From the IMG/VR virus record IMGVR_UViG_2541047928_000011: 5,268 nt of DNA; one strand, given 5' to 3'. Under the pieces are notes generated by a model that was given only the letters and a program-made list of their open reading frames with translations, was not told the origin of the DNA and did no database searches. Of this stretch, positions 1,440-5,268 are shown in pieces (position 1 is the stretch's first letter; each line of letters opens with the position of its first letter). Source of the DNA: a virus (Duplodnaviria > Heunggongvirae > Uroviricota > Caudoviricetes). Made by a program: the position numbers and the translations under genes.

Positions 1440-3506
1440 ATGGCAGCAGTAAAAATCTCAGGTGTGCTGAAAGATGGTGCGGGAAAACCAATACAGAACT
1501 GCACTATTCAGCTGAAGGCAAAGCGTAACAGCACCACGGTACTGGTGAACACGGTGGCCTCTGAAAATCCGGATGAAGCCGGGCGTTACAGCATGGATGT
1601 TGAGCATGGCCAGTACAGCGTCACCCTGCTGGTTGAAGGTTTTCCGCCTTCACATGCCGGGACCATTACCGTCTATGAAGGTTCCAGACCAGGTACGCTG
1701 AATGATTTTCTTGGTGCCATGACGGAGGATGATGCCCGTCCGGAGGCACTGCGCCGTTTTGAACTGATGGTGGAAGAAGCAGCACGCAACGCTGAAGCCG
1801 CCTCTCAGAGCGCAGCGGCGGCAAAGAAATCCGAAACTGCAGCGGCATCATCGAAGAACGCGGCGAAAACCTCAGAAACGAATGCAGCTAATAGTGCACA
1901 GGCGGCAGCGACCTCACAGACTGCATCAGCAAACTCCGCGACAGCAGCCAAAAAATCAGAAACCAGCGCGAAAAACAGCGAGACAGCCACAAAGGCCAGC
2001 GAAAAAAACGCAAAATCCAGCCAGACGGCAGCGAAAACCAGTGAGACGAATGCCAAAGACAGTGAAGCCAACGCAAAGGTGAGCGAAACAGCGGCGGCGA
2101 ACTCGGCGAAAGCATCGGCAGCAAGCCAGACGGCAGCAAAAGCAAGTGAAGATGCTGCCAGAGAATACGCAAACCAGACAGCAGAGCCGTACAGATATGT
2201 TTTACAGCCGCTGCCGGATGTGTGGATACCCTTTAATGATTCGCTGGATATGATTACGGGCTATTCTCCGGGTTATAAAAAAGTGAAGATTGGCGATAAT
2301 GTGGTTCAGGTTGCCAGTGATAAACAGGTTAATTTCAGTCGCGCATCAACGGCAACATATATCAACAAATCTGGCGAACTGAAAACGGCGGAAATTAATG
2401 AGCCGCGATTTGAGTGTGATGGCCTGCTTATTGAGGGACAAAGAACGAACTTCTTCCAGAACAGTACAGACCCTTCGAAGTGGAATAAGTCAACTTCACT
2501 GGACGTTACAGAAACAGGCACAGATAGTTTCGGGTTTAATTATGGTCGGTTTGTCGTACAGGATTCGATTGTTGGTACAAGTAAAGCGCATACCATTATC
2601 GGACTGTATTCGAGTACCGGAGGGGTTGATACTTCAGGGGACGAAAAGCATGTAACTATATCCTGTCGGGTAAAAAGTGAAGTTGATAATATCGCCGTTC
2701 GTATTTTATTTGAACATTATGATGGGGAGGTAAGGACATCAATAGGAGCAGCAAACCTGAACCTTACCACCCGCATAATTAGCAAGACAGGTCAGACAAG
2801 CCGTGTTACAGCAAGGTCTGTTAAGGATGATGCAACTGGCTGGATATTTTTTGAGGCTACATTAAAAGCAGATACAACAGAAAATACGGTTGGTGGTTTT
2901 GTCCAGTATTCTCCGGATACAGGGCAGATGGTTACATCAGGGGATTATCTCGATGTAACCACTCCACAGATTGAGGCTGGTACAGGCGCATCATCTTTTA
3001 TTGTTACGGGGACGGCACCGGCAACGCGGGCAAGCGATATGGTGACAGTCCCAATCAAGAATAACCTTTATAATCTTCCTTTTACGGTTCTTTGTGAGGT
3101 ACATAAGAACTGGTATAAAACGCCAAATGTAGCGCCGCGTGTTTTTGATACCGGCGGTCATCAAACCGGAGCGGGGATCGTAATGGGGTTTGGTTCATCA
3201 GGTGGGTACGACGGTTTTCCGTATTGCGATATAGGTGGTTCAGACCGACGAATAAATGAAAATGCCGGGCTGGAAAAAATGCTTATTGGTATGCGGGTAA
3301 AGTCCGAACGGTCCACATGTGTAGTCAGTAACGGTAAGTTAAGCAGCGAAACTAAAACCAAATGGGAATATATCCGGAGTACAGCAACCATTCGCATTGG
3401 TGGACAAACTACAGCAGGATTACGCCATTTATTTGGGCATGTGAGGAATTTTCGTCTCTGGCATAAAGAGCTAACAGATGCGCAGCTTGGGGAGGTTGTG
3501 GAGTGA
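1440..3506 (+). CDS. stf: Side tail fibre protein Stf, mosaic: lambda-like N-terminal domain, heptad-repeat shaft, divergent distal receptor-binding half
   Basis: ORF ends at TGA 3504-3506. The N-terminus (AVKISGVLKDGAGKPIQNCTIQLKAKRNSTT…GRYSMDVEHGQYSV…FPPSHAGTITVYE) matches recalled lambda Stf (orf-401). Start is set at ATG 1440 because GGAG (1431-1434) lies 5 nt upstream; the ORF-track start ATG 1434 has no RBS. The distal half (about 2200-3506) is visibly AT-richer and does not resemble lambda Stf as I recall it. Confidence 0.9.
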   Translation: MAAVKISGVLKDGAGKPIQNCTIQLKAKRNSTTVLVNTVASENPDEAGRYSMDVEHGQYSVTLLVEGFPPSHAGTITVYEGSRPGTLNDFLGAMTEDDARPEALRRFELMVEEAARNAEAASQSAAAAKKSETAAASSKNAAKTSETNAANSAQAAATSQTASANSATAAKKSETSAKNSETATKASEKNAKSSQTAAKTSETNAKDSEANAKVSETAAANSAKASAASQTAAKASEDAAREYANQTAEPYRYVLQPLPDVWIPFNDSLDMITGYSPGYKKVKIGDNVVQVASDKQVNFSRASTATYINKSGELKTAEINEPRFECDGLLIEGQRTNFFQNSTDPSKWNKSTSLDVTETGTDSFGFNYGRFVVQDSIVGTSKAHTIIGLYSSTGGVDTSGDEKHVTISCRVKSEVDNIAVRILFEHYDGEVRTSIGAANLNLTTRIISKTGQTSRVTARSVKDDATGWIFFEATLKADTTENTVGGFVQYSPDTGQMVTSGDYLDVTTPQIEAGTGASSFIVTGTAPATRASDMVTVPIKNNLYNLPFTVLCEVHKNWYKTPNVAPRVFDTGGHQTGAGIVMGFGSSGGYDGFPYCDIGGSDRRINENAGLEKMLIGMRVKSERSTCVVSNGKLSSETKTKWEYIRSTATIRIGGQTTAGLRHLFGHVRNFRLWHKELTDAQLGEVVE
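1794..2162 (+). repeat. Degenerate 21-bp tandem repeat array encoding about 17 heptads (x-A-A-K-x-S-E/Q) in the Stf shaft
   Basis: Protein residues about 121-243 parse cleanly into 7-residue units (AAAKKSE TAAASSK NAAKTSE TNAANSA … TAAKASE). The underlying DNA is A/G/C-rich low complexity, which also produces stop-free spurious ORFs on both strands. Confidence 0.7.
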
Positions 3507-3781
3507 GAGATTTCACGTTGCGTTTCAGTGATAAAGCAGATTTCAGGGCATTTCTCAGGAAACTTAACTGGGAAGAGGACGAAGAGCTGCAGAATGCCGT
3601 TCTGGTTGATGAGATTGGTTTTACGTTCAGGGAGACAGATGTTTCTGATGACGGAGAACCAGAATACACGCGAAACGAAGGGTACTTTGTTAATATCCGT
3701 CTTCTTGACGATGGATTTGAGGATTCCGTGTTCCGTGAGTGGGTGGTTACACCAGAGCGCCCGCTCAGGGAGTGGTTTTAA
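3503..3781 (+). CDS. Hypothetical small acidic protein (92 aa), translationally coupled to stf; possible fibre-specific chaperone or accessory factor
   Basis: GTG start at 3503 overlaps the stf stop (GTGA, 3503-3506). RBS GGGGAGG (3489-3495) lies inside the stf 3' end. Stop TAA 3779-3781. The protein is D/E-rich, has no hydrophobic segment, and has no family I recognise. Confidence 0.55.
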   Translation: MRDFTLRFSDKADFRAFLRKLNWEEDEELQNAVLVDEIGFTFRETDVSDDGEPEYTRNEGYFVNIRLLDDGFEDSVFREWVVTPERPLREWF

Positions 3782-3790
3782 GGATAGCAG

Positions 3791-4084
3791 ATGGATATCA
3801 CGTCGATACTTCATGCGCTTTGTGCCGTGGCGGTGCAGGTACTGGCTGGTCTTTTTACCGGAAACTGGGCTTACGGGGCGATAGCCGGTTGTACGTTCTT
3901 CATTGCGCGTGAACACACCCAGGCAGAATATCGCTGGATTAAGCGTTTTGGTGATGGTCACCGACATAAGATGCCGTGGTGGGGCGGTTTTGATCCACGT
4001 GCATGGGATGTGGCAAGCCTGATGGATTTTGCTGTGCCGGTGGTGGCGTGTCTGCTGGTCTGGCTGTTGGTTAATCGTGGGTGA
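3791..4084 (+). CDS. Hypothetical small membrane protein (97 aa, 2-3 predicted TM segments)
   Basis: RBS AAGGA (3780-3784) 6 nt before ATG 3791. A long N-terminal hydrophobic stretch (ITSILHALCAVAVQVLAGLFTGNWAYGAIAGCTFFIA) and a C-terminal hydrophobic helix (SLMDFAVPVVACLLVWLLV) flank a basic Trp-rich loop (RWIKRFGDGHRHKMPWWGGFDPRAW). Stop TGA 4082-4084. Confidence 0.55.
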   Translation: MDITSILHALCAVAVQVLAGLFTGNWAYGAIAGCTFFIAREHTQAEYRWIKRFGDGHRHKMPWWGGFDPRAWDVASLMDFAVPVVACLLVWLLVNRG

Positions 4085-4093
4085 AAAAGGTGA

Positions 4094-4222
4094 GCAGTAT
4101 ATGCAACGAAGGAGGAAACATCATTGCTGGCGGCATGGAAGGCATGCAGGGTGTTGCTGAACCGTGTTGATACATCAACTGCACCTGATATTGAGTGGCC
4201 TACGAACCCTGTCAGGGAGTAA
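4094..4222 (+). pseudogene. tfa: 3' remnant of a lambda-type tail fibre assembly gene (tfa), last ~40 codons only, no start codon
   Basis: In-frame translation gives …[39 protein letters not shown], which matches the recalled lambda Tfa C-terminus (…[34 protein letters not shown]…). In-frame stops at 4082 and 4091 precede it and the N-terminal ~150 codons of a full tfa are absent. Confidence 0.7.
4124..4200 (+). repeat. Direct repeat copy A (tfa 3'-end sequence), partner at 5173-5249
   Basis: Ungapped alignment at offset 1049 bp: 77 positions with 10 mismatches counted by eye, and a 38-bp perfectly identical core (4163-4200 = 5212-5249, CGTGTTGATACATCAACTGCACCTGATATTGAGTGGCC). Confidence 0.85.
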
Positions 4223-4236
4223 TCATTGGGATTATG

Positions 4237-4269
4237 CCGCAGCACGTCTTAAGCAAGAACGTGCTGCGG
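4237..4269. other. Perfect 11-bp inverted repeat (stem-loop) between convergent genes
   Basis: CCGCAGCACGT (4237-4247) and ACGTGCTGCGG (4259-4269) are exact reverse complements around an 11-nt loop. No U-tract is directly adjacent on either strand, so it is not a canonical intrinsic terminator. It sits in the 54-bp gap between the tfa stub (ends 4222) and the minus-strand gene (ends 4277). Confidence 0.4.
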
Positions 4270-4276
4270 TTGGATG

Positions 4277-4933
4277 CTATTTTTTCCCTGAAGCGGAAAA
4301 CATTACTACAGTACCTTGAATCTTGGTTTTAACATTCTCGAAATGCTCTGAGAGTATATGTGTTAAGCCTTCTTCGGAATCTTTTGTGTTTGAAAAGATG
4401 CCTTTCTGATTGTAAATGCGCATCAGTTTTTGACCGAAGCTATTGTGCACAACGCCGTCACCAAGAATTGTGGCTCCGTATAGAGTTCCATCGTCAGTTA
4501 AGGCCTGCGCCGCATTGCGTATTACACAGCTTTTTGTAGATATATTTCCAGGCAGGCAGTGAAGAAGGTAAAACATGGAAATGGAATCAAATTGACCATG
4601 TAACGCCGCGGGATAAGGATCAAAAACATCATGGCTAATTTTATGTTTAATTTTTGATTCCCCAGCCCTTGTCGATGCCGCGTTCAGGCTAGCTTCGTTC
4701 AAATCCATTAAAGATATCAGACTACTCTCAGGTACGTGAGTAAGGTAAAACCCAGTTCCAACGCCAATATCCAGATGGTTGTTACCTAAATGTTCCAGAA
4801 AGTGTGGAAGAAGGTGTTCCTTTGTAGGACATCCCCATGCAAGCCGATTTGATACTCCCAAAACCCACCAGTCATAAAGCTTTAGGGTAAGTGGTGTGTA
4901 AATTTTAGCCCCATCATCTGTGTTTTTTTTCAT
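4277..4933 (-). CDS. Class I (Rossmann-fold) SAM-dependent methyltransferase-like protein, small-molecule/RNA/protein type rather than DNA MTase
   Basis: Recognisable motifs: motif I LDIGVGTG, a post-I acidic residue (…ISLMDLNE), motif II GQFDSISMFYLLHCLP, motif III LTDDGTLYG. No DPPY/NPPY catalytic motif in the right context and no target-recognition domain. The region is markedly AT-rich compared with J/lom. Start is set at ATG 4933 (GGTGA 5 nt upstream); the ORF-track start GTG 4942 has no RBS. Stop TAG 4277-4279. Confidence 0.8.
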   Translation of the reverse strand: MKKNTDDGAKIYTPLTLKLYDWWVLGVSNRLAWGCPTKEHLLPHFLEHLGNNHLDIGVGTGFYLTHVPESSLISLMDLNEASLNAASTRAGESKIKHKISHDVFDPYPAALHGQFDSISMFYLLHCLPGNISTKSCVIRNAAQALTDDGTLYGATILGDGVVHNSFGQKLMRIYNQKGIFSNTKDSEEGLTHILSEHFENVKTKIQGTVVMFSASGKK

Positions 4934-4945
4934 TAGTTTCACCGT

Positions 4946-4974
4946 ATTATAGTTTTATTTGTGAATTAAATCAA
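4946..4974 (-). promoter_or_regulatory. Candidate sigma70 promoter for the methyltransferase-like gene
   Basis: On the minus strand: -35 TTGATT (plus 4974-4969), a 17-nt spacer, and a perfect -10 TATAAT (plus 4951-4946). The -10 ends only about 13 nt upstream of ATG 4933, implying a very short or absent leader. Confidence 0.5.
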
Positions 4975-5001
4975 TTATGGCGATGAATTACAAGGGGTTA
5001 A

Positions 5002-5268
5002 ATGCTGCCGCAGCATAGCGATATTGAAATAGCCTGGTATGCTTCGATACAGCAGGAGCCGAATGGCTGGAAGACCGTCACCACACAGTTCTACATCCAG
5101 GAATTCAGTGAGTATATTGCGCCACTGCAGGATGCTGTAGATCTGGAAATCGCAACGGAGGAAGAAAGATCGTTGCTGGAGGCATGGAATAAATATCGGG
5201 TATTGTTGAATCGTGTTGATACATCAACTGCACCTGATATTGAGTGGCCGACTTCACCTGCAGAGTAA
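5002..5268 (+). CDS. Small Tfa-like protein (88 aa) carrying only the conserved C-terminal Tfa domain (tail fibre assembly family)
   Basis: RBS AAGGGG (4992-4997) before ATG 5002; stop TAA 5266-5268 at the window end. The C-terminal ~50 aa ([47 protein letters not shown]) match the recalled lambda Tfa C-terminus; the N-terminal ~36 aa are unrelated and far shorter than a full Tfa N-domain. Confidence 0.7.
5173..5249 (+). repeat. Direct repeat copy B (tfa 3'-end sequence), partner at 4124-4200
   Basis: See copy A: same orientation, 1049 bp apart, 38-bp identical core 5212-5249. Confidence 0.85.

Follow-up and report, generated by a model that had tools for sequence, protein, structure and literature searches.

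The 3' end of tfa as a probable homologous-recombination joint around the ybcY methyltransferase gene of lambdoid Escherichia coli prophages

The stretch of DNA analysed here (the window) comprises the 5,268 bp of the virus record IMGVR_UViG_2541047928_000011. It is the right-hand end of a lambdoid prophage of Escherichia coli, essentially identical to the prophage adjoining potB in strains CUVET18-565 and CFT073. Towards its end lies ybcY, a minus-strand gene for a class I S-adenosylmethionine (SAM)-dependent methyltransferase, placed between two 3' ends of the tail-fibre assembly gene tfa, both on the plus strand. The subject of this work is the pair of tfa ends and the 38-bp core that they share, which together make up a joint at which fibre modules and cargo genes are probably exchanged by homologous recombination. 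The features of the ybcY unit, in window positions, are the following.

4103-4222, plus strand: tfa copy 1, a 5'-truncated remnant consisting of the last 39 codons and the stop codon, without a start codon.
4163-4200, plus strand: 38-bp core of copy 1 (CGTGTTGATACATCAACTGCACCTGATATTGAGTGGCC).
4237-4269: hairpin (CCGCAGCACGT / ACGTGCTGCGG) between the convergent tfa and ybcY.
4277-4942, minus strand: ybcY, class I SAM-dependent methyltransferase, the cargo (moron) gene, with an alternative ATG start at 4933.
4943-5094: 'inter' segment, the upstream region of ybcY plus unrelated sequence fused to tfa copy 2.
4946-4974, minus strand: predicted sigma-70-type promoter of ybcY, TTGATT-17-TATAAT.
5095-5268, plus strand: tfa copy 2 (tfaX of DLP12), a 5'-truncated 3' end of ~57 codons.
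5212-5249, plus strand: 38-bp core of copy 2, with the right-hand mosaic boundary at 5249/5250.

An earlier note, made from the sequence alone, had described direct repeats of the tfa 3' end, 1049 bp apart, around the minus-strand gene, and both an in-register comparison and matches to the Caudo_TAP family (PF02413) bear this out. Positions 4103-4203 and 5152-5252 are identical at 86 of 101 sites, in direct orientation and at an offset of 1049 (the pair was also found as repeat family D2). Within this extent 4124-4200 and 5173-5249 agree at 67 of 77 sites, which reproduces the roughly 10 mismatches in 77 bp previously reported, and the longest identical run is indeed the 38-bp core, at 4163-4200 and 5212-5249. 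The chance expectation of an exact 38-mer repeat in 5268 bp is ~2e-16. The homology sets in abruptly at 4103, the preceding 4060-4102 agreeing with its partner at 7 of 43 positions, which is the random level, and the final 6-7 codons past the core differ between the copies.

The Tfa C-terminus is read in frame in both copies. Copy 1 matches profile positions 95-130 of the 131 in Caudo_TAP (E 2.2e-14), and its reading frame, which does not open before 4094, lacks a start codon. The open reading frame (ORF) of copy 2 matches positions 75-131 (E 3.9e-25). Its tfa homology starts at ~5095, a slightly larger extent than that given in the earlier note, with 89% identity over 158 bp to a full tfa; no tfa homology was found in the 'inter' segment to the left of ~5095, and the apparent ORF of 88 amino acids borrows its ATG, at 5002, from the unrelated 'inter' sequence. 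Neither copy is a complete tfa (~194 codons, with a start codon and an N-terminal domain), and RefSeq labels both as 'incomplete, missing N-terminus'. The two copies are gene remnants, not functional members of the Tfa family.

Some additional elements are found in or near the repeats. A palindrome, GTTGAT-AC-ATCAAC, lies inside each core (4166-4179 and 5215-5228), with 6-bp arms and a 2-bp spacer, and codes for VDTST. Chi-like octamers are located ~30 bp 5' of each core, GCTGGCGG in copy 1 (4126-4133) and GCTGGAGG in copy 2 (5175-5182), and in about ten tfa alleles from viral contigs the same place is taken by a perfect Chi (GCTGGTGG); these octamers may have a bearing on RecBCD-stimulated crossover. 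RefSeq flags a frameshifted DinI-family fragment in strain H32 (5021-5100), between ybcY and copy 2; a DinI remnant at this place was considered and rejected (blastx of 4900-5160 against phage DinI, E 2.1).

The two tfa ends are different alleles with different allegiances. That they are not a simple recent duplication, as the earlier note had argued, is confirmed by fixed, mostly third-position differences 5' of the core and by tails and spacers that are quite different in other loci. A comparison of 28 unique copy 1/copy 2 pairs rendered ~16 fixed differing sites in the 115 bp before the core, most of them at third codon positions, and none in the core; counted by codons, ~47% of those 5' of the core differ between the paralogues, versus 0 of the ~13 core codons. 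In locus L184 the tails and spacers that follow the two cores are unrelated except for the hairpin. Both allele types occur elsewhere within full-length tfa genes, and in PhiR26_1-like phages copy 1 is itself a complete tfa of 194 codons behind a lambda-type side tail fibre gene (stf), while in the window it is the 39-codon remnant joined to orf97 at 4102/4103. Copy 2, in turn, adjoins the 5' side of ybcY in all 60 distinct ybcY loci with enough flanking sequence, and a tfa end lies within 400 bp of the other side of ybcY in 51 of these 60. Copy 1 is the right arm of the phage-21-type stf-orf92-orf97 fibre module, and copy 2 is the right arm of the ybcY cassette. On this point the earlier note has to be corrected: copy 2 belongs to the cassette and is not a duplicated target.

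The sequence of copy 1 in the window changes its relatedness at the core. With respect to the typical copy-1 allele there are 13 mismatches in the 60 positions of 4103-4162, followed by none in the 114 positions of 4163-4276. The segment 4103-4162 is a divergent allele patch; a step of this kind is not the product of pseudogene decay, and, since it is found in a pseudogene without a start codon, coding constraint cannot explain the identity of the core. Chimeric alleles are also found: that of L021 begins as a-type and continues as b-type, and the right halves of several copy-2 alleles are a-type. Among copy-2 ORFs, the polymorphic codons are synonymous and nonsynonymous at a ratio of ~1:1 and nonsense alleles occur (W12*, Q29*, W62*), according to an analysis cleaned of the indels that had confounded a first one; these observations indicate that copy 2 is decaying. 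Separately, six loci (L079, L088, L115, L050, L126 and L039) carry a diverged tfa (~44% amino acid identity) on the opposite strand, ~1.8 kb 5' of a 32-codon tfa remnant that precedes ybcY. In L079, for instance, the diverged tfa is at 10176-10361 on the minus strand and the remnant at 12158-12253 on the plus strand, an arrangement that recalls the alternative fibre/chaperone set of an invertible segment.

The proposal that the tfa 3' end is a recurrent joint of recombination is supported by a scan of IMG/VR contigs selected on the exact core. The 38-mer was found at least 147 times, in no fewer than 120 viral contigs, and its flanks comprise at least 25 distinct 45-nt sequences upstream and at least 25 distinct 30-nt sequences downstream. 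Every combination of a downstream tail with an upstream signature (that of the typical copy 1, of copy 1 in the window or of copy 2) occurs, a four-gamete pattern across the core, and many alignments terminate at 5249, the right edge of the core; in 26 loci the tail and spacer of copy 2 are of the same type as those of copy 1. As at a boundary of homologous recombination, one short sequence joins many modules and relatedness changes abruptly at the edges of the patch. The conservation island formed by the core is visible only between paralogous or divergent alleles.

The sequences beyond the core are varied. The ybcY cassette is located there in 42 of 51 informative loci, in a protein-selected sample; others have dinI, the lambda b region, cdtABC, a gene for a TIR protein, a reverse transcriptase or a McrBC-like pair. 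A full tfa can also be separated from the hairpin of the ybcY unit by extra cargo, namely pin-ynaE in PhiR68_2, a catalase with a yciEFG-like set in O157:H7, and ipaH in a Shigella-like remnant. In phage 21 the tfa remnant ends ~4 bp before the core (~4159) and is followed by the iron/manganese transporter genes sitABCD. In contig L091 two direct tfa fragments (75% identical) flank a gene for an EspM-like effector, with NleG upstream and NleH downstream. The variety of cargo and the arrangement of L091 imply that tfa 3' ends recur as punctuation between morons. As to the full order in L091, the region 5422-11553, which lies 3' of a truncated stf, encodes an NleG-like protein, two unknown ORFs, the first tfa fragment, an EspM/IpgB-family protein, the second, decayed tfa fragment, NleH (an OspG-type kinase) and a further ORF of 291 amino acids.

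Empty sites among related prophages, which the earlier note had suggested looking for, are present in each background that was compared. A full tfa is directly followed by dinI in L021, L074, L134, L149 and L207, and their occupied partner is L184 (tfa-ybcY-tfa'-dinI); the distance from the tfa stop codon to dinI is 122 bp in the empty loci and in L184 alike. The order orf97-remnant-dinI, without ybcY, is found in PhiR49_2, L025, L083, L072 and L105, with the window type as the occupied partner. In L121 a full tfa of the copy-1 type continues, from the core on, with the copy-2 tail of the window type and the DNA downstream of it, again without ybcY. Moreover, the joint predicted for a deletion, which is 3900-4200 fused to the sequence after copy 2, was searched in all complete E. 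coli genomes, and one of them, that of strain T309.Ta3, matches it in a single piece (J-lom-stf-orf92-orf97-single remnant-potB). To the left of the core the T309.Ta3 remnant has 0 mismatches in 90 positions to the copy 1 of the PhiR49_2 type, not to the window's own variant, and to the right it has 0 in 110 to the copy-2 flank of CFT073 and CUVET18-565, so that its parentage switches inside the 38-bp core. This joint is exactly that expected of a crossover between copy 1 and copy 2, and it could equally predate the arrival of the cassette. The joint matches H85-H107 were rejected as empty sites: CFT073 shows an occupied site that was matched via copy 2, and only T309.Ta3 is truly empty at this place.

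Directly after the ybcY stop codon comes the hairpin at 4237-4269, apparently a second boundary of the mosaic and the left limit of the ybcY unit. Two spacer alleles that are unrelated in other respects both retain the 3' half of the hairpin, and it is immediately past the hairpin that empty loci part from occupied ones; the O157, PhiR68_2, Kati and Turner loci are homologous to the window from 4237 on. It has a perfect 11-bp stem and a minimum free energy of -28.6 kcal/mol (z -3.67), with the U-run on the plus strand; the minus-strand fold, of -25.4 kcal/mol, has no U-run after it. A consensus terminator scan found no terminator, and the hairpin was recognised by eye in alignments before being folded. 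The late operon probably terminates at this hairpin.

Taking these results together, we consider it likely that the homology of the tfa 3' ends is a homologous-recombination patch that joins fibre modules, on its left, to cargo modules, on its right, the ybcY cassette among them. The last ~150 bp of tfa would be the shared homology, its key part being the 38 bp that are identical across otherwise diverged alleles; crossovers would fall preferentially in the core, and the hairpin would form a second boundary. General homologous recombination, by the host RecA or by 'relaxed' recombination of the phage Red/RecT type, might use this patch. Since the arms are repeated in the same orientation, the cassette would be deleted when copy 1 and copy 2 cross over, and recombination via the same arms with a cassette-bearing phage would install it. 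The steps of identity at the core edges and the reassortment of the flanks are directly observed; the agency of homologous recombination, the enzymes acting, and the choice between loss and absent gain at single empty sites we infer from the sequence comparisons. Published experiments bear on the same patch: Poteete et al. (2004) found that the C-terminal ~200 bp of lambda tfa recombine by Red with the prophage copies of K-12, the recombinants having used ybcX (tfaD) in 7 of 12 cases, the 'unnamed fragment' (tfaX) in 2 and tfaR in 3 (PMC545071). De Paepe et al. (2014) described the exchange of stf/tfa between lambda and the Rac and Qin prophages by relaxed, Rad52-like homologous recombination, and ~30 bp is cited there as near the minimum for Red-beta recombination (PMC3945230).

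Several observations weigh against this reading. The precise empty site in the background of the window was found in 1 of 5,426 genomes versus 404 occupied ones, so that either repeat-mediated loss is rare or T309.Ta3 never had the cassette, and static genomes do not tell loss from gain. Relative to the empty sites of the dinI type, the left edge of the insertion is at ~4273/4274, just past the hairpin and not within tfa, and the added segment is therefore ybcY-inter-tfa'-tail-hairpin. Among 80 loci with a full Tfa (94-100% identical), polymorphism is no lower in the core than in the N-terminal part. In the 16 two-core contigs among the 80 contigs listed, the ybcY cassette is all that two exact cores enclose, and the spacing is always 1049. 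A perfect match of 38 bp is near the lower limit for RecA-dependent recombination. Finally, some junctions are illegitimate, such as orf97|tfa at 4102/4103, inter|tfa' at ~5095, and two truncations, one of copy 2 at 5226 (ev243 and PhiR26_1) and one at ~4159 (phage 21); these joints arose once and then spread.

The same observations can be arranged into a view of the tfa ends as inert relics that a small number of ancient illegitimate insertions left behind (moron accretion), in which the cassette spreads by descent or within larger blocks and the identity of the core is due to coding constraint. The illegitimate junctions, the invariable ybcY and spacing between exact cores, the rarity of empty sites in the background of the window and a core that is not unusually invariant among close tfa relatives all agree with it. 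We nevertheless hold it to be unlikely: the start-less copy 1 steps from 13/60 to 0/114 mismatches at the core, left signatures and right tails occur in all combinations, T309.Ta3 and L121 change parentage exactly inside the core, about half of the upstream codons (~47%) and none of the core codons differ between the paralogues, and both K-12 copies recombine experimentally (PMC545071). A related view, of maintenance instead of inertness, would have the core and the hairpin preserved as punctuation by second-order selection or by self-reinforcing gene conversion, as a recombinase-free, integron-like docking platform. We think this decidedly doubtful; if it were true, every moron would arrive with a tfa 3' arm of its own, and general recombination would suffice for methyltransferase, effectors, toxins and defence systems to be stacked, exchanged and lost.

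The remaining explanations are less probable still. A local tandem duplication, in which part of tfa and its downstream spacer were duplicated in place when ybcY arrived and then diverged, would account for the direct orientation of the repeats and for the 26 loci where both copies share tail and spacer type. It is highly improbable, because the tails and spacers of L184 are unrelated apart from the hairpin, which as such excludes it; moreover, the copies differ by ~15%, mostly at synonymous sites, versus ~99% identity across loci for the ybcY between them, and both allele types are found inside full-length tfa genes elsewhere. It is no more credible that the core palindrome serves a serine recombinase of the Pin/Gin type as a crossover site for excision or exchange of the cassette. 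The palindrome in both cores (from 4166 and 5215) superficially resembles a pair of recombinase half-sites, and in PhiR68_2 a pin gene separates tfa from ybcY; yet the gix, cix and pix sites lie in the fibre gene and not in the tfa 3' end, invertases use inverted sites, the window has no recombinase gene, and chimeric alleles show crossovers upstream of the core too. Some stf exchange has been attributed to invertases (PMC3945230), but the Red-dependent recombination of Poteete et al. needs no such enzyme (PMC545071). Finally, copy 2 might have been kept as a functional chimeric ORF of 88-101 amino acids (5002-5268), for example as a decoy of the Tfa C-terminus, with the repeats as a by-product of selection. 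That ORF is intact in ~90 of 107 instances, has a PHROG family of its own (phrog_2341) and is invariably linked to ybcY. On the other hand, its C-terminus varies with three junction types (88, 89 and 101 amino acids), the K-12 copy is a pseudogene with an internal stop, and RefSeq annotates it as incomplete; the idea, which we rate as very unlikely, was dropped because of the nonsense alleles and the ~1:1 ratio of synonymous to nonsynonymous changes.

Returning to exchange by homologous recombination at the tfa end, the cargo at stake in the window is ybcY. The profile scores of its product are 37.5 bits for Methyltransf_12 (cut-off 30), 28.7 for Methyltransf_23 (27) and 24.4 for Methyltransf_11 (21.2), and its counterpart in PhiR26_1 is annotated as YbcY. 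With regard to the substrate, only marginal similarity to small-molecule O-methyltransferases was found, namely to the structures of UbiG and juvenile-hormone acid methyltransferase (JHAMT), with no close solved structure, and known defence-system models gave no credible match, only a marginal one to mad2 (E 0.0044, 13.9 bits). The GC content is 0.413 for ybcY and 0.421 for the segment upstream of it, versus 0.50-0.52 for J-lom-stf-orf92/97. The predicted promoter, read from 4974 to 4946 on the minus strand, agrees with 10 of 12 consensus positions, and in K-12 the corresponding TTGATT-17-TATAAC is listed as a constitutive promoter of the RpoD holoenzyme in the H-NS-marked ybcY<>tfaX spacer (PMC3946193). 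As is characteristic of morons, ybcY is present or absent among collinear relatives, has a predicted promoter of its own and deviates in base composition.

The ybcY unit does not have the make-up of a site-specific mobile cassette (transposon, integron cassette or invertible segment). No recombinase domain was detected in any ORF of the window, the repeat search of the window found no inverted repeats flanking the cassette, and the direct repeats, 120-170 bp long, are fragments of genes that have diverged and not a target-site duplication. A scan for YbcY in genome contigs rendered only 12 loci. Three Enterobacter homologues (L015, L017 and L018), with 61-64% amino acid identity, have no tfa nearby; the one examined, L015, has a chromosomal context, beside a peptidase M3 gene, a short-chain dehydrogenase/reductase (SDR) gene and a GntR regulator. 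These homologues were rejected as instances of the cassette, being distant relatives, chromosomal and without tfa. Enterobacter may be the bacterial lineage that the moron was captured from.

To the left of the ybcY unit the window has the following features.

22-708: C-terminus of J.
776-1375: lom.
1381-1430: intrinsic-terminator-like GC-rich hairpin with a T-run (cagcccgccggttcaggcgggctttttt), directly 3' of lom and 5' of stf.
1434/1440-3506, plus strand: stf, side tail fibre gene of the phage-21 type, 688-690 amino acids (Pfam phage_tail_N, E 4.6e-67; PHROG tail protein).
3503-3781, plus strand: orf92, conserved hypothetical (phrog_1361, E 1.3e-40, no known function).
3791-4084, plus strand: orf97, small putative membrane protein (phrog_1443, E 5e-55).

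The hairpin at 1381-1430 is typical of an intrinsic terminator serving the lom moron. The segment 1434-4084 is the side-tail-fibre module of the classical phage 21 (L222, 1137-3778; stf of 690 amino acids), and the gene order stf-orf92-orf97 is the same in phage 21, ev243, PhiR49_2 and CFT073. The module closed by tfa copy 1 has stf as its left part, a gene whose N-terminal domain is conserved and whose C-terminal part varies. Imperfect repeats with a periodicity of 21 bp are found at 1851-2164 (family D1, 41-nt copies whose start spacings are multiples of 21); they encode an Ala/Ser/Lys/Thr/Glu-rich tail-fibre shaft directly after the conserved N-terminal domain, and are a likely left-hand recombination arm in swaps of fibre modules. 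In the loci compared, orf92 is always found 3' of this type of stf, and it may be a chaperone of the fibre. The last intact gene of the module is orf97, whose phage 21 counterpart is annotated as a putative membrane protein with two transmembrane domains.

Two points concern annotation. In several genomes RefSeq labels as 'nucleocapsid protein' or 'hypothetical protein' an ORF of 45 codons at 4195-4332, which overlaps the hairpin as well as the ends of tfa copy 1 and, at its 3' side, of ybcY; this ORF is almost certainly spurious. The window, like at least 13 viral contigs (e.g. L047, L094 and L151), has its end precisely at the tfa copy 2 stop codon, 19 bp past the core, and the true end of the prophage (attR, beside potB) lies ~230 bp beyond the end of the window in CUVET18-565 and CFT073. 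The end at 5268 looks like an automated prophage-boundary call placed at a gene end.

The unit tfa(+)-ybcY(-)-tfa'(+) is the tfaD(ybcX)'-ybcY'-tfaX' block of DLP12, a cryptic prophage of K-12. The DLP12 locus tfaD-ybcY-tfaX (ylcE) shares with the window the three elements, their orientation and spacing and the ybcY promoter, with ~95% nucleotide identity over 4103-5249 (95.3%), and both of its tfa pieces are annotated as pseudogenes; RefSeq gives, in K-12, two incomplete tail-fibre-assembly genes that flank a frameshifted class I methyltransferase gene. The two loci differ in that copy 1 of K-12 is longer and fused to a terminase remnant, ybcY is frameshifted and appY-ompT follow copy 2, whereas in the window the 39-codon copy 1 stands behind a fibre module of the phage-21 type, ybcY is intact and copy 2 is at the prophage end by potB. 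The locus is thus not new and has been annotated in K-12 for decades. A unit of the DLP12 type, counted as present when one place covers at least 80% of 4103-5249, was found in 3,791 of the 5,426 complete E. coli genomes (~70%), and 404 of these 3,791 have the orf97 side as in the window; such large counts include much vertical inheritance of DLP12-like remnants.

With regard to other known systems, the moron concept of lambdoid phages reportedly goes back to Juhala and Hendrix, and ybcY agrees with it as an extra gene that only some collinear phages have, 3' of the fibre genes and on the opposite strand, with its own predicted promoter and a lower GC content. A canonical moron, however, lies between adjacent genes without a duplicated flank, whereas with ybcY a second tfa 3' end is a constant component of the unit. 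Modular exchange at conserved boundary or linker sequences is said to have been put forward by Susskind and Botstein and by Clark et al. in 2001. The tfa joint resembles such boundaries in being a short conserved patch between variable modules with identity steps, or 'HR traces', at its edges (PMC3945230, PMC545071), and the same tfa patches have been shown to recombine for the K-12 copies (PMC545071). What these papers do not describe is a patch that brackets cargo or recurs between stacked morons, which is an incremental extension of the published concept of exchange. Exchangeable effector loci 3' of the tail-fibre genes in lambdoid prophages of enterohaemorrhagic and enteropathogenic E. coli (EHEC/EPEC) were reportedly described by Tobe et al. 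in 2006. They occupy the same genomic slot, in which L091 holds NleG, an EspM-like effector between tfa fragments, and NleH; the cargo of the window differs in being a methyltransferase and not a secreted effector, and the second tfa fragment of L091 is more decayed (75% identity). The invertible segments (Mu G, P1 C and e14 P, with Gin, Cin and Pin) also have duplicated fibre/tfa sequences by fibre genes, and pin is found in the slot of PhiR68_2, but they rely on inverted sites inside the fibre gene and a serine recombinase, whereas the repeats of the window are direct, lie at the tfa 3' end and come with no recombinase. In the literature searched, no explicit description of tfa 3' ends bracketing cargo was found. 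The feature and its recombinogenic nature were already known, no new mechanism is revealed, and the population-level picture of tfa joints may be a modest addition.

The joint would be of use in the annotation of prophages, because many automated boundaries, the end of the window included, stop exactly at the tfa' stop codon, and it would help to predict which cargo can be moved between prophages and to design recombineering or deletion assays. For the biology of these phages, the 38-bp stretch of tfa together with the nearby hairpin would represent a concrete and very common joint for the swapping of fibre modules and cargo in the lambdoid prophages of E. coli, and the cargo moving at this joint would include type III effectors, cdt, sitABCD and anti-phage genes.

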